Positions 538-9,715 of a stretch of DNA of 9,715 bases are shown here, one piece after another. Within the stretch, counting starts at the first letter, position 1. The number at the start of each line of letters is the position of its first letter. Position numbers and translations under genes: made by a program. The stretch is from a virus (lineage: Duplodnaviria > Heunggongvirae > Uroviricota > Caudoviricetes), in the IMG/VR virus record IMGVR_UViG_2713897054_000020. One strand, written 5' to 3'. A model generated the notes under the pieces. The model was not told where the DNA came from. It did not search any database and saw nothing but the letters and a program-made list of their open reading frames with translations.

Positions 538-1080
538 TTACTCGCCTTTCTTCTGTAGTAACTTCTCCGGTACGTCTCCGGTAGTTTCCATCAGGTAATC
601 AGCCAGTATCTGCGGGAGGTTGTCAGCAACTCCTGCGCAAGCATTACAGGCTTTAACCACTTCCTTTTTAAGTCCATCCAGCATAGCGGGGGTCATCTGT
701 GGGAAGCTCCTTTGCATAGTAAGCGGGAGGCTGTCCATGATTGATGAAATCTGACTCGCCAGTTTTGAAAGCGCGTACATGCAAAACTCTGTATCAATCA
801 CGTCACCGCGATCGCGCTCGTTTTTAAGTTCCTGCGCCTCTGCCTGTGCTGTCAGTAATCTGATCCTGACTCGTAAAAGTTCATCATCATCAATCTCACC
901 TTTGCCGTTTGTAAGCTGGCTAATTGCATTGTTAACCCTATTGTCTATCACGCTGGCAACATCATAAAACGCCTCACGGCCTTTACGCTCAACGGGAGTT
1001 ACTCCCCACTTGTCGAACGCTGTCGCACTTACACGGCAGCTTTTAGCCATGTTTTTTTTGTTCATCAGGTGCGATTTCAT
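538..1080 (-). CDS. small terminase (lambda Nu1) homologue; likely Rpp-type packaging-redirection protein of cos-type PICIs
   Basis: 180-aa ORF. The C-terminal two thirds align with lambda Nu1 (RLLTAQAEAQELKNERD...DTEFCMYALSKLASQISSIMDSLPLTMQRSFP versus Nu1 RLTRAQADAQELKNARD...ETAFCTFVLSRIAGEIASILDGLPLSVQRRFP). The N-terminal DNA-binding region is diverged (NKKNMAKSCRVSATAFDKW versus NKKQLADIFGASIRTIQNW). Flanked by cos sites. The start could be the ATG at 1080 or the in-frame ATG at codon 6 or 11. Confidence 0.85.
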   Translation of the reverse strand: MKSHLMNKKNMAKSCRVSATAFDKWGVTPVERKGREAFYDVASVIDNRVNNAISQLTNGKGEIDDDELLRVRIRLLTAQAEAQELKNERDRGDVIDTEFCMYALSKLASQISSIMDSLPLTMQRSFPQMTPAMLDGLKKEVVKACNACAGVADNLPQILADYLMETTGDVPEKLLQKKGE

Positions 1081-1284: not shown

Positions 1285-1698
1285 TCAGATGGTTTTCAGT
1301 ATGCGATCGATGTCGCCGTCATCGCCCGGGTTTCTGCCATCGTATGCCATGCCAGCTGATACGGCTTGCGGGCTGTGCATGTCCATAAAGTTTTCAAAGG
1401 CTGCGGTAAGCTCCGGCGCAACCCTCGGACGTTCCTGCTCTATGGTCATGCTAAGGATGCTTTTAGCCGTACCAACATCGATACAAGGCACGTTTGCCAT
1501 TGCACGTAACAGCGGCTGATAGTCGCCAGATTCATCAAGCGCCATAATCGCATCAGCGCGCGGCTTGTCCTGCTCTTCCAGTTTGTTAAGTTGATATATG
1601 GCCTCGTAGGTTGATAACCCTCTGTCAGCCATTGCCCGCGCTTCGGCTTTAAATTTACTCGCCAGCGGTAGCGTCATGATGCTTTCATTCGTTGCCAT
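1285..1698 (-). CDS. hypothetical protein (137 aa), last gene of the capsid operon; possibly an assembly or scaffold-type factor
   Basis: Minus-strand ORF, ATG at 1698-1696, 12-nt gap after the gpD-like gene with a G-rich SD. Acidic, Ala-rich, predicted helical. No motif recognised; the scaffold suggestion rests on position only. Confidence 0.55.
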   Translation of the reverse strand: MATNESIMTLPLASKFKAEARAMADRGLSTYEAIYQLNKLEEQDKPRADAIMALDESGDYQPLLRAMANVPCIDVGTAKSILSMTIEQERPRVAPELTAAFENFMDMHSPQAVSAGMAYDGRNPGDDGDIDRILKTI

Positions 1699-1710: not shown

Positions 1711-2046
1711 TTATCGGGCCAGCGGCTGAACGGATACGCCAGAACCCGCAAAGGCGGCGCATTTTTTCGCATCGGTGTCGACGCTCTCAGGCCAGTTAAC
1801 GGCGGCAATATTGAATATCCCCGTCTTGTAACACTGTGCTGATTTCTGCTTTGACGTGTCCACAGGATACGAAGTCAGATAAACAGCCTTGCCAGATTCC
1901 TGACCATCCCACGGCTTAAACTCGCCATTGTCCGCCAGCATCAGCGGGGTAAATTCCTGAATAACGCCAGCATCAGCGGCAAAATGTACCAGCGTCGTGG
2001 CGACCTGCTGACTGCCTGCGAATAACTCAATGTATGGAGTGTCCAT
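1711..2046 (-). CDS. head decoration protein, lambda gpD homologue
   Basis: 111 aa, about the size of gpD (110 aa). Blocks TPLMLADNGEFKPWDG and WPESVDTDAKKCAAFAGSGVSV align with gpD TPLMLDTSSRKLVAWDG and [30 protein letters not shown] upstream of ATG 2046-2044. Confidence 0.85.
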   Translation of the reverse strand: MDTPYIELFAGSQQVATTLVHFAADAGVIQEFTPLMLADNGEFKPWDGQESGKAVYLTSYPVDTSKQKSAQCYKTGIFNIAAVNWPESVDTDAKKCAAFAGSGVSVQPLAR

Positions 2047-2057
2047 AGAATCCCCCG

Positions 2058-3113
2058 TTAACCAATTTTGACGGTAACAAATTTGCGAATATCTGCCGGT
2101 ACCGGCTGCGGTGCGCTGTGTGTCTGCACGTACTCAATCGCCGGATCGCCGTCCTCAATCCAGTTTTTCGGGTAGTACATGTTTTGCGTTGCGCCCGTTC
2201 TGACCGCTTCCTGATCCATAATCGCACCATAGGCCACCAGGCCTTTATTGTTGGTGTTACCCAGGACCAGTAAATCAGGCTCAAGGAAATATTTTTCGGT
2301 GCCGTCGCTGTCAGCGTATTTGCCGGAATAGACGATAAGGGCAATATCGCCCAGATAGCCTTTAAAGCTCACCACTTCGCCCAGGTTTTTACAGGCCAGT
2401 TCTGCGGCGGATTCTGAACCACGGGAAAGATCGTACAGCTCACGGAATTTTTTAAAGCTGCGTAACGTGCGCCATACCTCAGCGCCCATAATCATGACGT
2501 TTGCGGGGCAACCAGCCTGATCAGCATAAAGCTCGATGTCATAGATTGGGTCGTGCATCTCTTTATCCTGCTCGGACCATTTTTTACCCTTGGCCTGCTC
2601 TATGATGCAGTTTTCCGGTATTTTCCAGTCTATTTCATAGCGTTCTATGCCTTCGCCCTCAATAATGTTTTTTCCGGTCGTTATCGCATTCACCGCTAGC
2701 CATTCCACGCGCGCTTTAATGGCGTTTACCTGGCGGCGCATGTTGCCAGTAATCAGGCGCATACGTCGGTAGGTAGGGTCGTTAAGCTGTGCCGGATCTT
2801 CTCCAGCCATGCGCATGATGGTTTTTGTTGGATCGATTTCGTGCTTTGGCTTCATGTAGCCAGGTTTAATCGTGCTGGTTTCGTATCCTTTATCGCGCTG
2901 TACCTGGCTGCCAACCATAGGCGAACAAAACGCCGACATGGTGACTTCTTCAATGTCCAGGGTATCCAGCATGATGTTTTGGGTGCTGAATGTCGCCACG
3001 TTCGGGAAAAACAGCGTGGTAAACAGCGGACTGAATTTAAATTCCGCAATATCCCCGCGATTCAGGTACGCAAAAAGCTGGTTAGTGTTAAGTGCCGTTG
3101 CTTTGCCTGCCAT
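2058..3113 (-). CDS. major capsid protein, lambda gpE family
   Basis: 351 aa versus gpE 341 aa. Conserved blocks run across the whole length: EFKFSPLF, PGYMKPKHEIDP, EDPAQLNDPTYRRMR, KGYLGDIALIVYSGKY, LVLGNTNNKGLVAYGAIMD and YPKNWIEDGDPA, against gpE KFKFDPLF, PGYVKPKHEVNP, EDPQNLADPAYRRRR, KGMYGDVAIVVYSGQY, MVLGNTQARGLRTYGCIQD and YPKNWVTTGDPA. The start overlaps the upstream stop (TAATG). Confidence 0.9.
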   Translation of the reverse strand: MAGKATALNTNQLFAYLNRGDIAEFKFSPLFTTLFFPNVATFSTQNIMLDTLDIEEVTMSAFCSPMVGSQVQRDKGYETSTIKPGYMKPKHEIDPTKTIMRMAGEDPAQLNDPTYRRMRLITGNMRRQVNAIKARVEWLAVNAITTGKNIIEGEGIERYEIDWKIPENCIIEQAKGKKWSEQDKEMHDPIYDIELYADQAGCPANVMIMGAEVWRTLRSFKKFRELYDLSRGSESAAELACKNLGEVVSFKGYLGDIALIVYSGKYADSDGTEKYFLEPDLLVLGNTNNKGLVAYGAIMDQEAVRTGATQNMYYPKNWIEDGDPAIEYVQTHSAPQPVPADIRKFVTVKIG

Positions 3114-3319
3114 TATTCACCCCCATAATTTTTATGCATCCCAAGCGCCGCAAGTAAATAAGAGCGCACAAGTGAACCTATCGACGGCTCCGGCGTCATC
3201 AGCGGATCCAGTCCAGCCGCTACGCCAGCCTCATAGTTTTTTTTGTGGCGCTGCTTGAGCACCTCCACGATTTCGGGGCTTATGTACACCGAAACACCGC
3301 CTTTTTTCTCTTCTGCCAT
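3113..3319 (-). CDS. hypothetical protein (68 aa), first gene of the capsid operon
   Basis: Minus-strand ORF with SD AAGAGGAA upstream of ATG 3319-3317. Its stop overlaps the start of the gpE-like gene by one nucleotide, which implies translational coupling. No motif recognised. Confidence 0.5.
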   Translation of the reverse strand: MAEEKKGGVSVYISPEIVEVLKQRHKKNYEAGVAAGLDPLMTPEPSIGSLVRSYLLAALGMHKNYGGE

Positions 3320-3352
3320 AGTCAGAAATTCCTCTTTGACTTAAAAAATCAC

Positions 3353-3403
3353 AACTGGATGTTCATCCAGTTATGATTATAATCATGATTGCATTTTGCG
3401 CAA
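3353..3403 (-). promoter_or_regulatory. putative promoter and operator of the capsid operon
   Basis: Minus-strand -35 TTGCGC (3403-3398), 16-nt spacer, -10 TATAAT (3381-3376). The -10 lies inside a perfect 14-bp palindrome ATGATTATAATCAT (3373-3386). A perfect 20-bp palindrome AACTGGATG-TT-CATCCAGTT (3353-3372) covers the predicted start site and early leader. Confidence 0.4.
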
Positions 3404-3480
3404 TAAAATTGAGTTATGTTGCAAATTATGAAATGATTTACAGCAACAGTAGTCACCATGCTGTTAACCTCGTAAGCAAA

Positions 3481-3520
3481 AGCCCGATAAGCTTCCTCCT
3501 GTACTTATCGGGCTTTTTTT
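3481..3520 (+). terminator. strong intrinsic terminator, plus-strand oriented and possibly bidirectional
   Basis: Stem AGCCCGATAAG (3481-3491) pairs with CTTATCGGGCT (3504-3514) around a 12-nt loop CTTCCTCCTGTA, followed by a T7 run (3514-3520). On the minus strand it is followed by only UUUUGCUU. Confidence 0.55.
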
Positions 3521-3524
3521 GGGT

Positions 3525-3548
3525 ACAAAAAGCCGGATTTTCTCCGGC
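3525..3548 (-). terminator. rho-independent terminator after ssb
   Basis: Stem GCCGGA (3532-3537) pairs with TCCGGC (3543-3548), with an A-run at 3527-3531 giving a U-tail on the minus strand. Almost identical in sequence to the terminator at 1257-1279. Lies directly after the SSB stop (3557). Confidence 0.6.
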
Positions 3549-3556
3549 CTGTGCGT

Positions 3557-3967
3557 TCAGAACGGAATATCATCACCGTAGGGGTCATCGTCTCCCGCTG
3601 GTGGCTGATTACCCTGTGCGCCTGTGGTTTTGCGTCTGTTCCCGCCAGGACGTGCCGCACGGGCACTGATTACGCTGTCTGCAATAACCTGATAACCCTG
3701 CCGCGTTTCCCCGTTCTGTCCGGTCCACTGGCTTATCTGCATCACGCCAGATATGCTGGCAACGTCGCCTTTTTGATGTTTAGCCAGGAAGTCGGCCTGC
3801 TTACCAAATGCCATCACCGATAGCCATAACGTAGCCGTTCCGTCATCTGCCTGGCTGCACGGAAGGGGGACCGCCATACGAGCCAGCGTCATTGGTGTGC
3901 CCTTGCTGGTCTGTTTTACCTGCGGGTCGTCCACCAGCCGCCCGTAAGCGGCTATCTGTGCCGTCAT
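3557..3967 (-). CDS. ssb: single-stranded DNA-binding protein
   Basis: 136 aa. OB-fold core blocks GRLVDDPQ and WLSVMAFGKQADFLAKHQKGDVASISG parallel E. coli SSB GNLGQDPE and [28 protein letters not shown]. Gly/Pro-rich linker and an acidic C-terminal tail ending DDIPF, as in SSB. The ATG overlaps the upstream stop (ATGA). Confidence 0.85.
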   Translation of the reverse strand: MTAQIAAYGRLVDDPQVKQTSKGTPMTLARMAVPLPCSQADDGTATLWLSVMAFGKQADFLAKHQKGDVASISGVMQISQWTGQNGETRQGYQVIADSVISARAARPGGNRRKTTGAQGNQPPAGDDDPYGDDIPF

Positions 3968-4233
3968 ACTGCCCCCTCTCCGGTTTTAACGTTGATGGTT
4001 GTTACCTGTTCCGCTTCGGCAATCTCCCGTTCTGTCAGCGTGGCAAAGTTTGCCGCTGCTGTGGTCATGAATGCGCTTATCAGGTCGGGATGTTCCTTCG
4101 CGTATCCTTCCCCCGCGTGGCGGTCTATTACCCTGATTGCTACCTTTAAGGCGTGCTCTGTCATGTCTAACGCTTTATATTTTGGCTCTGTTCTGTCTCT
4201 GCGCATTTTGGTTATCTCCTCACTCATGCTCAC
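3964..4233 (-). CDS. hypothetical protein (89 aa) between the origin and ssb
   Basis: ORF translationally coupled to ssb through an ATGA overlap. The start is either GTG at 4233 (SD GAGG 6 nt upstream) or ATG at 4227. No motif recognised. Confidence 0.5.
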   Translation of the reverse strand: MSMSEEITKMRRDRTEPKYKALDMTEHALKVAIRVIDRHAGEGYAKEHPDLISAFMTTAAANFATLTEREIAEAEQVTTINVKTGEGAV

Positions 4234-4420
4234 TTTTGCGCCTCACTTTTTAAAGAGTCTCGCTTCGTCTCACTTGATATTTTTGATGTTTTTATGTGCA
4301 TGTTTCATAAGGATTTTTTTACTCCTCACTTTTTGGGGTATATATACGTTGAAAAGTGAGGAGTTCAGGGGGTTTTTCGTTCAATTACTCATTGTCCTCA
4401 CTTTTGCGCCTCACTTTTTA
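4229..4420. repeat. putative replication origin: iteron array with an AT-rich inverted-repeat core
   Basis: Two perfect 24-bp direct repeats CTCACTTTTGCGCCTCACTTTTTA at 4229-4252 and 4397-4420. The sub-motif CTCACTT(TT) occurs at least six times on the plus strand and once inverted. A 12-bp inverted repeat CTCCTCACTTTT (4322-4333) / AAAAGTGAGGAG (4351-4362) flanks the AT-rich spacer TGGGGTATATATACGTTG. Sits immediately 3' of the replication helicase gene. Confidence 0.6.
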
Positions 4421-5827
4421 CAGAGGGCCTACATCATCACCGTCGATATAAATAACCCCGTCTTTTTCCAGCTTGCGTAGCCAGCGGCTGAAGTTTTTCA
4501 TTTCGTACCCCAGCTTTTTCATATCGTCACGTAACAGCGGGATCGTGCACTTGTCGCCGTGCTGTGTGCGTGACCGGATACATCCCCATAGCGCAGCATG
4601 ATTCTCCGTCTTGTTGCCAGCCTCTTCGATGCGCTCCAGTTCAACGGGAGGACGCGGCTTATCCACCACCACCAGCGACGTGATTAACTCCCCGTCAGCG
4701 TCGGTAAAAAGCTCCACCACCCGCAAATCATAGGCAGCCTCTTTGAGTTCCTCCGCGTCCTTCATTTTGGTGCATGAGATAACCAGCGCTTCGCTTCCTG
4801 CGTCCTCCCTGCGTATCCGGTATTCAGCGTCCAGTGATGCACGAAATGCACTGGAACCACGCGCCCCCTTTGTTTCATCCTTGCCGGAATGGTGAACCAC
4901 CAGCACCGTAGCCCCTGTGCGCCGTTTAAGCTCGTCACAACCACGGATAAATGCCCCCATGTCGCGGGAGTCATTTTCATCATTGCCGCCAAAGCAACGC
5001 GCCAGCGTGTCCAGAATAATCATGCGAACAGGTTTACCCGTTTCCCTCTCCACCTGACTGGCAGCAATAACCAGTTCATCAACATCAAGCGGGACAGCCG
5101 GAAAGATGGGACGGTTTACCAGATACAGATTTTTCACCTGCTCACCGTGCACAACCTCCCAGGCTTTTACACGACGCGGAACGCCGATACCGCCTTCACC
5201 AACCACATAGAGAACAGCGCCATGCGCCACCCTGCGGCCTCCCCACTGGCGGCCCGTGGAAACGTGACACGCCCACGATCCGGCAAGGAATGATTTATAG
5301 GAACCGCTCGCCCCGTATATGCTGCAAAGCGACGATGCCGGAATAATCCCCTTTACCACGTAATCAAGCTGTGTGTCGTATCCGGTAGATCCAACGCTCA
5401 TCGGTAGCGTGGTTTTTCGCTGGGGAATTTTTTTCATGACCAGGCTTTCCCCGCGTTCCCATGCCTCCCTAAGCCGTGGAAGCTGGTCGCTCCATTCCTC
5501 CAGCAATTCGAAATTTTCAGAAAGTAGCCGCGCCTCCTGGACTCCGGCGATCGCCAGTTTCGTGGCGATGGTTAACAGCTGCGGCTCTTCAATATTTCCG
5601 GCGCGTATCACCGTCGCCCTGTATCGCCCATCATCAACAATCTGGAGGTTATCCAGTTCGCTTAACTGATAACGCCCCAGATAAACGGGAGGGACTGGAT
5701 CGCCTGCTTTTTTGGCCTGTGCAATGATGTAATGCTCTGCGAATGAATGAGCATCAATACCCGCAAAAATAATCGCATCGGTGTATTTATCTTTCGGTAA
5801 TAGTTTTACGTTCGGTGCCAGTTTCAT
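4418..5827 (-). CDS. replication initiator/helicase, RepA/DnaB-like RecA-fold ATPase (AAA_25-type)
   Basis: 469 aa. P-loop-like GASGSYKS, Walker B-like VRMIILDTLARCFGG, and a helicase H4-type motif ATVLVVHHSGKD. An N-terminal domain of about 170 aa and a C-terminal domain of about 70 aa are unassigned. SD AGGGGT; the ATG overlaps the upstream stop (ATGA). Confidence 0.85.
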   Translation of the reverse strand: MKLAPNVKLLPKDKYTDAIIFAGIDAHSFAEHYIIAQAKKAGDPVPPVYLGRYQLSELDNLQIVDDGRYRATVIRAGNIEEPQLLTIATKLAIAGVQEARLLSENFELLEEWSDQLPRLREAWERGESLVMKKIPQRKTTLPMSVGSTGYDTQLDYVVKGIIPASSLCSIYGASGSYKSFLAGSWACHVSTGRQWGGRRVAHGAVLYVVGEGGIGVPRRVKAWEVVHGEQVKNLYLVNRPIFPAVPLDVDELVIAASQVERETGKPVRMIILDTLARCFGGNDENDSRDMGAFIRGCDELKRRTGATVLVVHHSGKDETKGARGSSAFRASLDAEYRIRREDAGSEALVISCTKMKDAEELKEAAYDLRVVELFTDADGELITSLVVVDKPRPPVELERIEEAGNKTENHAALWGCIRSRTQHGDKCTIPLLRDDMKKLGYEMKNFSRWLRKLEKDGVIYIDGDDVGPL

Positions 5828-7760: not shown

Positions 7761-7967
7761 TTAAGCGGTCGTTCCGCGCGCTTTTTGTTCGCGTTCTTTC
7801 ATCCATGCGATTACGTCTTCCTCATACCATCCGCGACGGCGCAAACCGACACGAAAACCCTGCGGGAATTCTCCGGCGTTGATCATGCTTTGCAGCGTGC
7901 TGTCTGCCTTAATGTGGATAAGTTTTTTTACTTCCTGGCGAAAGATGACTTTTTTGATTGCTTCCAT
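7761..7967 (-). CDS. alpA: AlpA-family (excisionase-like HTH) transcriptional regulator
   Basis: 68 aa. SD GAGGT 8 nt upstream of ATG 7967-7965. Sequence block STLQSMINAGEFPQGFRVGLRRRGWYEEDVIAWM follows the AlpA/Xis MerR-like HTH pattern (S.ST, G.FP, G.R, W, DV, W). Confidence 0.8.
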   Translation of the reverse strand: MEAIKKVIFRQEVKKLIHIKADSTLQSMINAGEFPQGFRVGLRRRGWYEEDVIAWMKEREQKARGTTA

Positions 7968-8396: not shown

Positions 8397-8473
8397 GGCC
8401 TCGTCGTTAAATGTGATGCAATTATACGACGGTTTTAAATGGTTTTCGTAGTTTTTACTGGTTTTCTGTACAG

Positions 8474-9715
8474 CTAAACGGCTCGGATACCCCTTTTACC
8501 ACTGGCGAGGGTTACGCCCGTCGCCGCAGCCTCGACAAATTCGCCCCACCAGCGCATAAGCACGATGCGTTTTTCTATGTAGTTGCTCCGGTTGTATGCC
8601 CGTCTGACTTCGTTGGTGTCGACGTGGGCAAGTGCGGCCTCTATTACGTCTGGCTCAAAGCCTTCTTCGTTCGCTGCTGTGCTGAATATGGCGCGTAATC
8701 CATGAGACACCAGCACGCCAGCGAATCCCATGCGTCGTAATGCTGCGTTAGCGGTCTGGCTGTTCATCGGCTGCTGTGGGTCTTTCAGACTCGGGAAAAC
8801 ATAATCGCGGTGGTGGCTGATTGGTTTCATAGCCTCCAGCACTGCCATAGCCTGGTCACAAAGCGGGATAACGTGGTCGCGGCGCATCTTCATGCGTCCG
8901 GCGGGTATGGTCCAGCGTTGCGCTTCCATGTCGATTTCTTCCCAGCGTGCCGACGATGCTTCAACGGGACGGGTTACGGTCAGTAACTGCCATTCAATCA
9001 GTAATCTGGTCTGCCGTTCTGTTGCCGATACTGATAAAGCCTGCATAAGCTCCGGCAGCTGTTCGGGGCGGATTGTTGGCATATGTTTTTTTACAGGGGA
9101 GGGGAACGCCTTACGCACATTCATAGCCGGATTGGCATCAATCATCCCACTATTGGCGGCGTAATCCATTACCTCATTTATACGCTGTAAAACTCGCTTG
9201 AGCGTTTCCAGGTTGCCACGTTCCTTGATGGGGGTAAGCACCTCAACGAACCTGCGAGCGGTCAGGGTGTCTATTGGCGTGTTGCCGATGAACGGGAATA
9301 CATATTTTTCCAGCGATCGCCAGATGTCTTTAATCGTATTGGGGGCCAGATTCTGGCTGATTTTCACCTGGTACCATGCTGTTGCCACATTTTCGAACGT
9401 GTTCCCTTGTCTTCGGGCCTCTGTCTCTCTTTTTTGCCTCTCGTGGTCCTGCGGGTCAGTTCCGGCACGAATTAACGCCCTGTACTCGCTACGGCGTTTT
9501 CTGGCATCAGCCAGGGAAACATCATCAAGCGATCCAAAACTCAGCAATATTCTTTTTTTGTCCGATGGTCGGTAGTAGGAAAATCTCCAGAGTTTTGATC
9601 CGGACGGTTTGATCAGGAGAAAAAGCCCTCCGCCGTCCTGTAGGGTGTATTCCTTTTCTGCTGGTCTGGCTGCTTTGATCTGTACTGTGGTTAATGGGGG
9701 TGTTTTTCTCGCCAT
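8474..9715 (-). CDS. int: tyrosine site-specific integrase, P4/CP4-57 family
   Basis: 413 aa. The N-terminal arm-binding region LTTVQIKAARPAEKEYTLQDGGGLFLLIKPSGSKLWRFSYY matches the P4-type integrase pattern (DGGGLYL..KP.GSK.WRF.Y). The C-terminal catalytic region carries HGLRA, HVIPLC and a late RRAYNRSNY segment that probably holds the catalytic Tyr. The ATG is the last three bases of the window, so the promoter and attachment site lie outside it. Confidence 0.9.
   Translation of the reverse strand: MARKTPPLTTVQIKAARPAEKEYTLQDGGGLFLLIKPSGSKLWRFSYYRPSDKKRILLSFGSLDDVSLADARKRRSEYRALIRAGTDPQDHERQKRETEARRQGNTFENVATAWYQVKISQNLAPNTIKDIWRSLEKYVFPFIGNTPIDTLTARRFVEVLTPIKERGNLETLKRVLQRINEVMDYAANSGMIDANPAMNVRKAFPSPVKKHMPTIRPEQLPELMQALSVSATERQTRLLIEWQLLTVTRPVEASSARWEEIDMEAQRWTIPAGRMKMRRDHVIPLCDQAMAVLEAMKPISHHRDYVFPSLKDPQQPMNSQTANAALRRMGFAGVLVSHGLRAIFSTAANEEGFEPDVIEAALAHVDTNEVRRAYNRSNYIEKRIVLMRWWGEFVEAAATGVTLASGKRGIRAV

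Follow-up and report, generated by a model that had tools for sequence, protein, structure and literature searches.

The window, by which we mean the whole stretch of 9,715 nt analyzed here, is a phage-inducible chromosomal island (PICI) of Escherichia coli of the EcCICFT073 type. Our definition of a PICI comprised an integrase, an alpA-like regulator, a primase/helicase with an adjacent origin, a co-oriented late module, a size of ~10 kb, and a tRNA/att neighbor; the family, including int, the alpA-like regulator, the primase/helicase, and the late module, has been described previously (PMC6092414, PMC6739421). The gene content, gene order, size, and att context of the window are those of EcCICFT073-type Gram-negative islands. 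The island measures ~9.7 kb and lies between tRNA-Pro/yejM and yejO, with every gene on the minus strand:

8474–9715, minus strand: integrase
7761–7967, minus strand: AlpA-like HTH protein
between the AlpA-like gene and DUF4222 in gene order, minus strand: Icd-like gene
listed with the RepA-type helicase, minus strand: DUF4222 gene
4418–5827, minus strand: RepA-type helicase
4217–4419: iteron-rich, origin-like stretch
3557–3967, minus strand: SSB gene
237-bp gap from the SSB gene to the late module: contains 3353–3403
3335..3331, minus strand: Shine-Dalgarno sequence AGAGG of the 68-aa gene
3113–3319, minus strand: 68-aa ORF, first gene of the late operon (ATG at 3319..3317)
2058–3113, minus strand: gpE-type major capsid protein
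1711–2046, minus strand: gpD-type decoration protein
1285–1698, minus strand: 137-aa scaffold-like ORF, 3′ of the decoration gene
538–1080, minus strand: Nu1-like/Rpp gene

The origin-like stretch holds at least six CCTCACTTTT-type iterons in both orientations, just 3′ of the RepA-type helicase gene, which is where the replication origin of a PICI would be expected. The 137-aa ORF matches the C-terminal part of phrog_53, a head-maturation-protease family (positions 494–567 of 583, E = 1.6e-8), suggesting a remnant of a Nu3-like scaffold. Between a 93-aa ORF and the Nu1-like gene, positions 397–516 contain three copies of TCAGATCC(G/T)TTCT (397–414 direct, 450–467 inverted, and 498–516 direct), possibly packaging-protein (cos-region) sites; spurious Rfam hairpin matches came from this stretch.

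EcCICFT073 itself, located in CFT073 at NC_004431.1 1377930–1388654, has the same gene order as the window, with the capsid gene annotated as c1499, the decoration gene as c1500, and Rpp as c1503 (PMC6092414, PMC6739421). The 601 bases around the palindromes discussed below match E. coli O91 RM7190 at 100%, and the intergenic block is present in 620 of 5426 complete E. coli genomes (~11%), mostly at 80–90% identity. In EcCICFT073, O157:H7, and strain 042, a gene for a PerC-family regulator, in some cases with small ORFs, lies between ssb and the promoter block (spans 19960–20208 in L268, 3823–4095 in L003, and 2123–2395 in L007). The window has no counterpart of this gene, and homology to those islands therefore stops at window position ~3548.

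The putative late promoter and its surroundings

The intergenic block contains the following elements:

3548..3527, minus strand: terminator-like hairpin
3478–3520, plus strand: terminator (stem 3478–3491/3504–3517, T7 at 3514–3520)
3418–3434: second, degenerate copy of the ATTGCA-N5-TGCAAT type, over the candidate rightward promoter
3409–3437, plus strand: candidate rightward promoter, TTGAGT (3409–3414)-17-AATGAT (3432–3437)
3388–3404: palindrome ATTGCAttttgCGCAAT, consensus ATTGCA-N5-TGCAAT, overlapping the late −35 and spacer
3403..3398, minus strand: −35-like hexamer TTGCGC, 16 bp from the −10
3373–3386, both strands: perfect 14-bp palindrome ATGATTATAATCAT
3374–3385: its 12-bp core TGATTATAATCA
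3381..3376, minus strand: −10 hexamer TATAAT, at the center of the 14-bp palindrome
3368–3372, minus strand: predicted start zone, inferred from the −10 position (5–8 nt downstream of it)
3353–3372: predicted LexA (SOS) box AACTGGATGTTCATCCAGTT, CTG-N10-CAG, heterology index (HI) 6.81
3347–3378, minus strand: extended inverted repeat with 15-nt arms and one G·U/mismatch, terminator-like if transcribed from upstream
3348..3343, minus strand: T run after the extended repeat

Read along the minus strand, the order is TTGCGC, 16 bp, TATAAT, an inverted repeat of the LexA type, a T run, AGAGG, and the ATG at 3319. The preliminary description had placed a promoter of the capsid operon at 3353–3403; sequence and comparison both support this prediction, and the segment is likely the sigma-70 promoter of the leftward late operon. 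The arrangement TTG-N19-TATAAT occurs once in the window (0.10 expected), and two of the three TATAAT hexamers in the window belong to the 14-bp palindrome. The −10 fits the consensus at six of six positions and the spacer is 16 bp, but the −35 matches at only three of six, because of which the promoter falls below the threshold of a promoter scanner in the window. The scanner does call the homologous promoter in a Salmonella island (L091, TTGCGA-16-TATAAT, 10/12) and in a divergent E. coli lineage (L186, TTGCAA-16-TAAAAT, 9/12). Among relatives, the −35 takes the forms TTGCAC, TTGCAA, and TTGCGA, with TTGC conserved, and the −10 TATAAT is invariant across the main E. coli and Salmonella lineages. 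Two terminator-like hairpins, one minus-oriented (3548..3527) and one plus-oriented (3478–3520), separate the SSB gene from the promoter block; the late operon would thus be isolated from the replication module and need a promoter of its own. A 36-aa ORF (3461..3351, minus strand) was rejected, its ATG being missing in most relatives.

The 14-bp palindrome does present TATAAT on both strands, as had been described (plus strand 3378–3383, minus strand 3381..3376). Its length alone is not unusual: when the window was resampled 300 times under a first-order Markov model, 156 of the resamples had a longest perfect palindrome of 14 bp or more. The 14-mer derives its meaning from the conservation of its 12-bp core rather than from its length. 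We aligned 59 distinct sequences, drawn from genomes of E. coli and from contigs in IMG/VR. Of 48 distinct aligned segments of relatives, 46 have the core unchanged; in the main lineage it never varies, and the positions on either side change independently. The palindromes, which had been thought nested, are not: the 20-mer at 3353–3372 adjoins the 14-mer at 3373–3386, and it is an imperfect inverted repeat with 15-nt arms (3347–3361 and 3364–3378, 93%) that reaches into the first 6 bases of the 14-mer.

The symmetry of the −10 could, in principle, make this a bidirectional promoter, with transcription from the plus-strand TATAAT running rightward into the 3478–3520 terminator and yielding a short RNA; LexA would then sit on the −35 region of the rightward promoter. 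The presence of TATAAT on both strands, the invariance of both halves of the core, and the retention of a plus-oriented terminator in every lineage despite differing stem sequence are all compatible with such an arrangement. Nevertheless, we consider it unlikely. First, the plus-strand −35 is poor (TGGATG or CTGGAT). Second, in the L005/L186 lineage, a single −10 change gives TAAAAT on the operon strand, where A2 and T6 are kept, but TTTAAT on the other strand, where the key A2 is lost; the hexamer is thus retained on the operon strand only, which favors its leftward use. Third, there is a better rightward candidate, TTGAGT-17-AATGAT (3409–3437), whose offset is constant across all lineages and which would account for the plus-strand terminator.

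This candidate and the strong terminator would delimit a small divergent transcription unit (3409–3523, plus strand) with a predicted RNA of ~80 nt. Every lineage examined, Salmonella and a lineage that lacks the LexA-type box among them, preserves the offset of its promoter and the orientation of its terminator, and the sequences of the RNA body and the terminator stem differ between lineages. No target of the putative RNA was found within the island above shuffled controls.

Both the leftward and the rightward promoters are overlapped by further symmetric elements. Two palindromes of the form (A/G)TTGCA-N5-TG(C/A)AAT, 30 bp apart at −27 and −56, are conserved in the alignments, and L189 has two good copies 32 bp apart. 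Their conservation makes at least one more regulator likely, and they may be bound by a factor encoded by the helper or by the island; no ATTGCA-N5-TGCAAT sites were found in the CFT073 helper prophage. The TTGCA motifs resemble CytR- or CRP-type sites, a reading that we did not adopt. A tentative and, in our judgment, somewhat doubtful extension is that the 237-bp spacer is a two-input switch, in which a LexA-gated late promoter and the divergent promoter at 3409–3437, both overlapped by these operators, integrate the SOS response and a helper-specific cue. The divergent promoter would make the ~80-nt RNA, terminated at ~3520 and with a lineage-variable body, and the operators would serve a dimeric regulator encoded by the island or helper. 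A switch of this kind would be new for Gram-negative PICIs.

A predicted LexA box over the start zone

The 20-bp repeat had been called a perfect palindrome. It is instead built as 9 + 2 + 9, with arms at 3353–3361 and 3364–3372 around a TT that is not self-complementary. It does lie over the predicted leftward start, and sequence and comparison support its proposed role as an operator for a dimeric repressor. The suggestion that a helper-encoded factor provides the induction cue fares less well, as the repeat matches the LexA box of the host, both in its HI of 6.81 and in variation that follows the LexA matrix. Its central 16-mer, CTGGATGTTCATCCAG at 3355–3370, is a CTG-N10-CAG dyad, the element that LexA binds as a dimer (PMC2994835). 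From 4 bp downstream of the conserved −10, the box extends over about −3 to +17 of the predicted promoter, a placement that would occlude RNA polymerase; genes under tight LexA control typically have boxes that overlap the start site (PMC8072944).

To score the site, we solved an additive, positional HI matrix from 140 published pairs of 20-mers and HI values (PSOSP Table S1, PMC12527982). The fit is exact (rmse 1e-5), and the matrix reproduces the values of recA (4.31), sulA (4.65), umuDC (2.77), uvrB (6.11), ruvA (9.19), and polB (12.09). The window value of 6.81 falls in the range of the uvrA, uvrB, and lexA boxes, and in the same table, which lists 368 CTG-N10-CAG 20-mers of E. coli K-12, just 14 have a lower one. 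The Mean-Shift low-HI class reaches 13.6 there (PMC12527982). Two CFT073 stretches of 40–45 kb served as background and positive control for the box scan, which recovered the umuDC box (HI 2.77) at 39 bp upstream of umuD. Over the 30 kb that surround EcCICFT073, no site other than the box at the late promoter has an HI of 14 or less, and this box is identical to that of the window (AACTGGATGAACATCCAGTT in operon orientation). Lewis et al. reportedly set, in 1994, an HI limit of 12.6 for LexA-binding sites; the window (6.81) and its relatives (5.41–9.61) lie within the binding range. At the base composition of the window, sites with an HI of 6.82 or less are expected ~4e-4 times per 9715 nt and 3e-5 times per 237-nt spacer. 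Thus, the 20-mer is most likely a host LexA box, to judge by this quantitative match, and LexA would be predicted to bind it.

It is true that about half of all random sequences the size of the window should contain a perfect 14-bp palindrome, and one could regard the palindromes as functionless chance features of an AT-rich spacer. The LexA-box expectation of just 4e-4 and the conservation of the block across E. coli and Salmonella islands contradict this reading, which we consider exceedingly improbable.

The box is found at a fixed offset, 13 nt from the start of the core TGATTATAATCA, in 81 related loci that include EcCICFT073 and Salmonella islands, with a median HI of 7.6 (5.41–9.61). 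Across the E. coli and Salmonella islands, the promoter block is better conserved than the coding sequence next to it. In two Salmonella islands, GACTGGATGAAAATCCAGTA (HI 7.98) is retained together with the core and the upstream blocks; their homologs of the 68-aa protein are 53–55% identical, and their 5′ leader differs. Ten distinct substitutions occur in the 20-mer, none of them in CTG or CAG, so that variation is confined to positions of low information. The mean HI change of the ten is +0.44, against +1.40 for random non-fatal changes; random draws give P ~6.5e-5 for this pattern, an approximate value because the draws treat substitutions as independent. Two substitutions that break the 9-bp stem, G to A at position 9 and C to A at position 15, move the site toward the LexA consensus.

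Some relatives have the promoter block without the box, namely one lineage (L005, L006, L107, L186–L188, and L190) and also L189. In L053/L108 (IMG/VR contig 2529293138_000005), a 1-nt insertion in the box gives CTGGATGAACAATCCAG, a CTG-N11-CAG form that should abolish LexA binding and keep the hairpin, and this natural variant should be useful as a test. The box is therefore dispensable for the operon, an option rather than a requirement. In a wider taxonomic sampling of genome contigs, a protein scan gave 0 matches and a pattern scan gave 12 chance matches in unrelated taxa.

A palindrome over a predicted start could also serve some dimeric regulator besides LexA, encoded by the helper or by the island, and the island has further conserved palindromes for which a separate regulator is likely. 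One candidate would be an autoregulator encoded by the 68-aa ORF; in the AF2 model of this protein, an extended N-terminal segment is followed by two helices, a layout that may be compatible with a ribbon-helix-helix protein. The model is of moderate quality (pLDDT 73), however; a fold search of the PDB gave no match at E ≤ 0.001, and the protein has no Pfam match. Moreover, the 20-mer motif has no second copy in the island, and no similarity to the phage records searched was found. On the LexA matrix, the site scores like genuine SOS boxes and varies in line with the matrix. We regard a non-LexA operator as quite improbable.

The repeat might also act mainly as RNA. The 3378..3347 hairpin with its U run could be an intrinsic terminator or attenuator, shielding the late operon from read-through that comes from the replication module, perhaps with relief by an antiterminator; alternatively, the 9-bp stem would form a stabilizing stem-loop at the 5′ terminus of the late mRNA. 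The extended repeat is called terminator-like by a scanner in the window and in EcCICFT073, and the hairpin folds at −17.7 kcal/mol (z = −6.1) with U's after it. Its outer stem pairs vary among U-A, U·G, C-G, and G-C, with “further pair types” above 495 of 500 shuffles. But the covariation is mixed in this stem, which has 14 pairs, only 4 of them G-C, next to the U run. The inner 8 pairs never vary among 16 distinct sequences and are thus uninformative either way, and pair 3373/3352 is unpaired in 9 of the 16. Six of the ten substitutions in the 20-mer break pairs of the 9-bp stem without compensation, whereas none of the ten conflicts with the LexA matrix. The block is already preceded by two terminators, and the T run is conserved even in the lineage that lacks the hairpin. 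Further, the predicted start lies inside the extended stem, so that RNA initiated at this promoter could not form the extended hairpin. These last two features, the T run without a hairpin and the start within the stem, lead us to rank an RNA role as secondary, and a main role in RNA seems unlikely. The few compensatory or G·U changes in the outer pairs leave an added function as terminator or 5′ stem possible.

The lambdoid PR′ region, with its Q-utilisation site and tR′, similarly combines a strong promoter with an immediate hairpin and T run upstream of head genes. Here, however, the hairpin would end at about +27 and could not fully form from the predicted start, it is absent in one lineage, and no sequence similarity to a deposited phage, including lambdoid late-promoter regions, was found; on these grounds, we set a PR′-type arrangement aside. 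A search of 3320–3556 by blastn against 50,697 phage records gave only chance matches, which also led us to reject Q-type antitermination and a borrowed phage late promoter. Rfam gave no match at E ≤ 1 in the region, and Esr41 was dismissed because it lies in a different O-island.

Proposed SOS control of a satellite late operon

Taken together with its LexA-like box, 3353–3403 is, we think with fair assurance, a LexA-gated promoter of the capsid/decoration/packaging-interference operon that would be derepressed by the SOS response. In undamaged cells, a LexA dimer on CTG-N10-CAG, at about −3 to +17, would block initiation. During SOS, RecA-stimulated self-cleavage of LexA would free the late promoter. 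SOS induces lambdoid helper prophages as well, such that expression of the capsid-homolog, decoration, and Rpp-type genes would coincide with induction of the helper; the satellite would probably turn on its capsid and packaging genes by the same signal that wakes the helper phage. The fit of the 20-mer to the LexA box and matrix makes SOS the most likely cue, in preference to a helper protein. Release of LexA alone, however, may not be the whole switch, since published work stresses helper-dependent induction through AlpA and reports alpA to be SOS-independent (PMC6092414).

The box itself resembles validated chromosomal sites. Those of ruvAB (CGCTGGATATCTATCCAGCA, HI 9.19) and uvrB (AACTGTTTTTTTATCCAGTA, HI 6.11) in PSOSP Table S1 have the same CTG-N10-CAG dyad, of the CTGG...CCAG type in which G is tolerated at position 6 and C at 15, and the HI of the window lies between the two. 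Unlike them, the window box is on a mobile island, precedes homologs of structural genes rather than repair genes, and is embedded in a longer inverted repeat.

Among mobile elements, several relatives in logic can be named. Coliphage 186 tum and the Gifsy antirepressors are LexA-controlled switch genes; here, by contrast, the gated genes are late/morphogenetic homologs, not an antirepressor. In these as in colicin operons, a mobile element without a cleavable repressor of its own senses DNA damage through a LexA box at a strong promoter. There are two overlapping boxes in colicin operons (PMC2994835) and one here, and the product of the former is a toxin rather than late/morphogenetic homologs. 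A parallel in arrangement is with the SaPIs of Staphylococcus aureus, whose operon I, for packaging and interference, is LexA-controlled (Ubeda et al. 2007, as cited in PMC5052747). In both cases, a satellite operon for packaging or capsid interference would be under the SOS repressor of the host, and excision and replication would be on a separate, helper-dependent switch (Stl in SaPIs, AlpA here). The control was demonstrated experimentally in SaPIs, whereas ours is a prediction from sequence. The Gram-positive LexA motif and the genes of operon I are unrelated to those here, so that any likeness would be convergent.

A LexA-repressed satellite promoter is thus already known in kind, and the case of a Gram-negative PICI is new in the searchable literature. 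That literature treats helper-dependent AlpA induction only and is silent on transcription of the late module, including the packaging-redirection gene Rpp. In four sources on these islands (PMC6092414, PMC6739421, PMC10530653, and the cf-PICI preprint), LexA appears only in reference lists or is absent, and a full-text search of largely open-access literature found nothing relevant on LexA/SOS-box control in Gram-negative PICIs. If our proposal is correct, Gram-negative PICIs read the SOS signal of the host directly, and the logic of SaPIs, with one switch for excision and replication and LexA for packaging and interference, is repeated as convergent regulation between Gram-positive and Gram-negative satellites. 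Such control would bear on experiments in which mitomycin C is always used, on the basal cost that the island imposes, and on delivery vehicles engineered from PICIs.

Separately, a second, weaker LexA-like box, TACTGGTTTTCTGTACAGCT (HI 10.33), is present at 8456–8475, immediately behind the stop codon of the integrase gene. The TATAAT at 8426..8421 (minus strand), the only other operon-sense TATAAT of the island, follows 29 bp downstream of the box, and the two precede an 83-aa ORF and the alpA-like gene. This box is absent from EcCICFT073, whose integrase differs, and is present in the E. coli Nissle island (L004).
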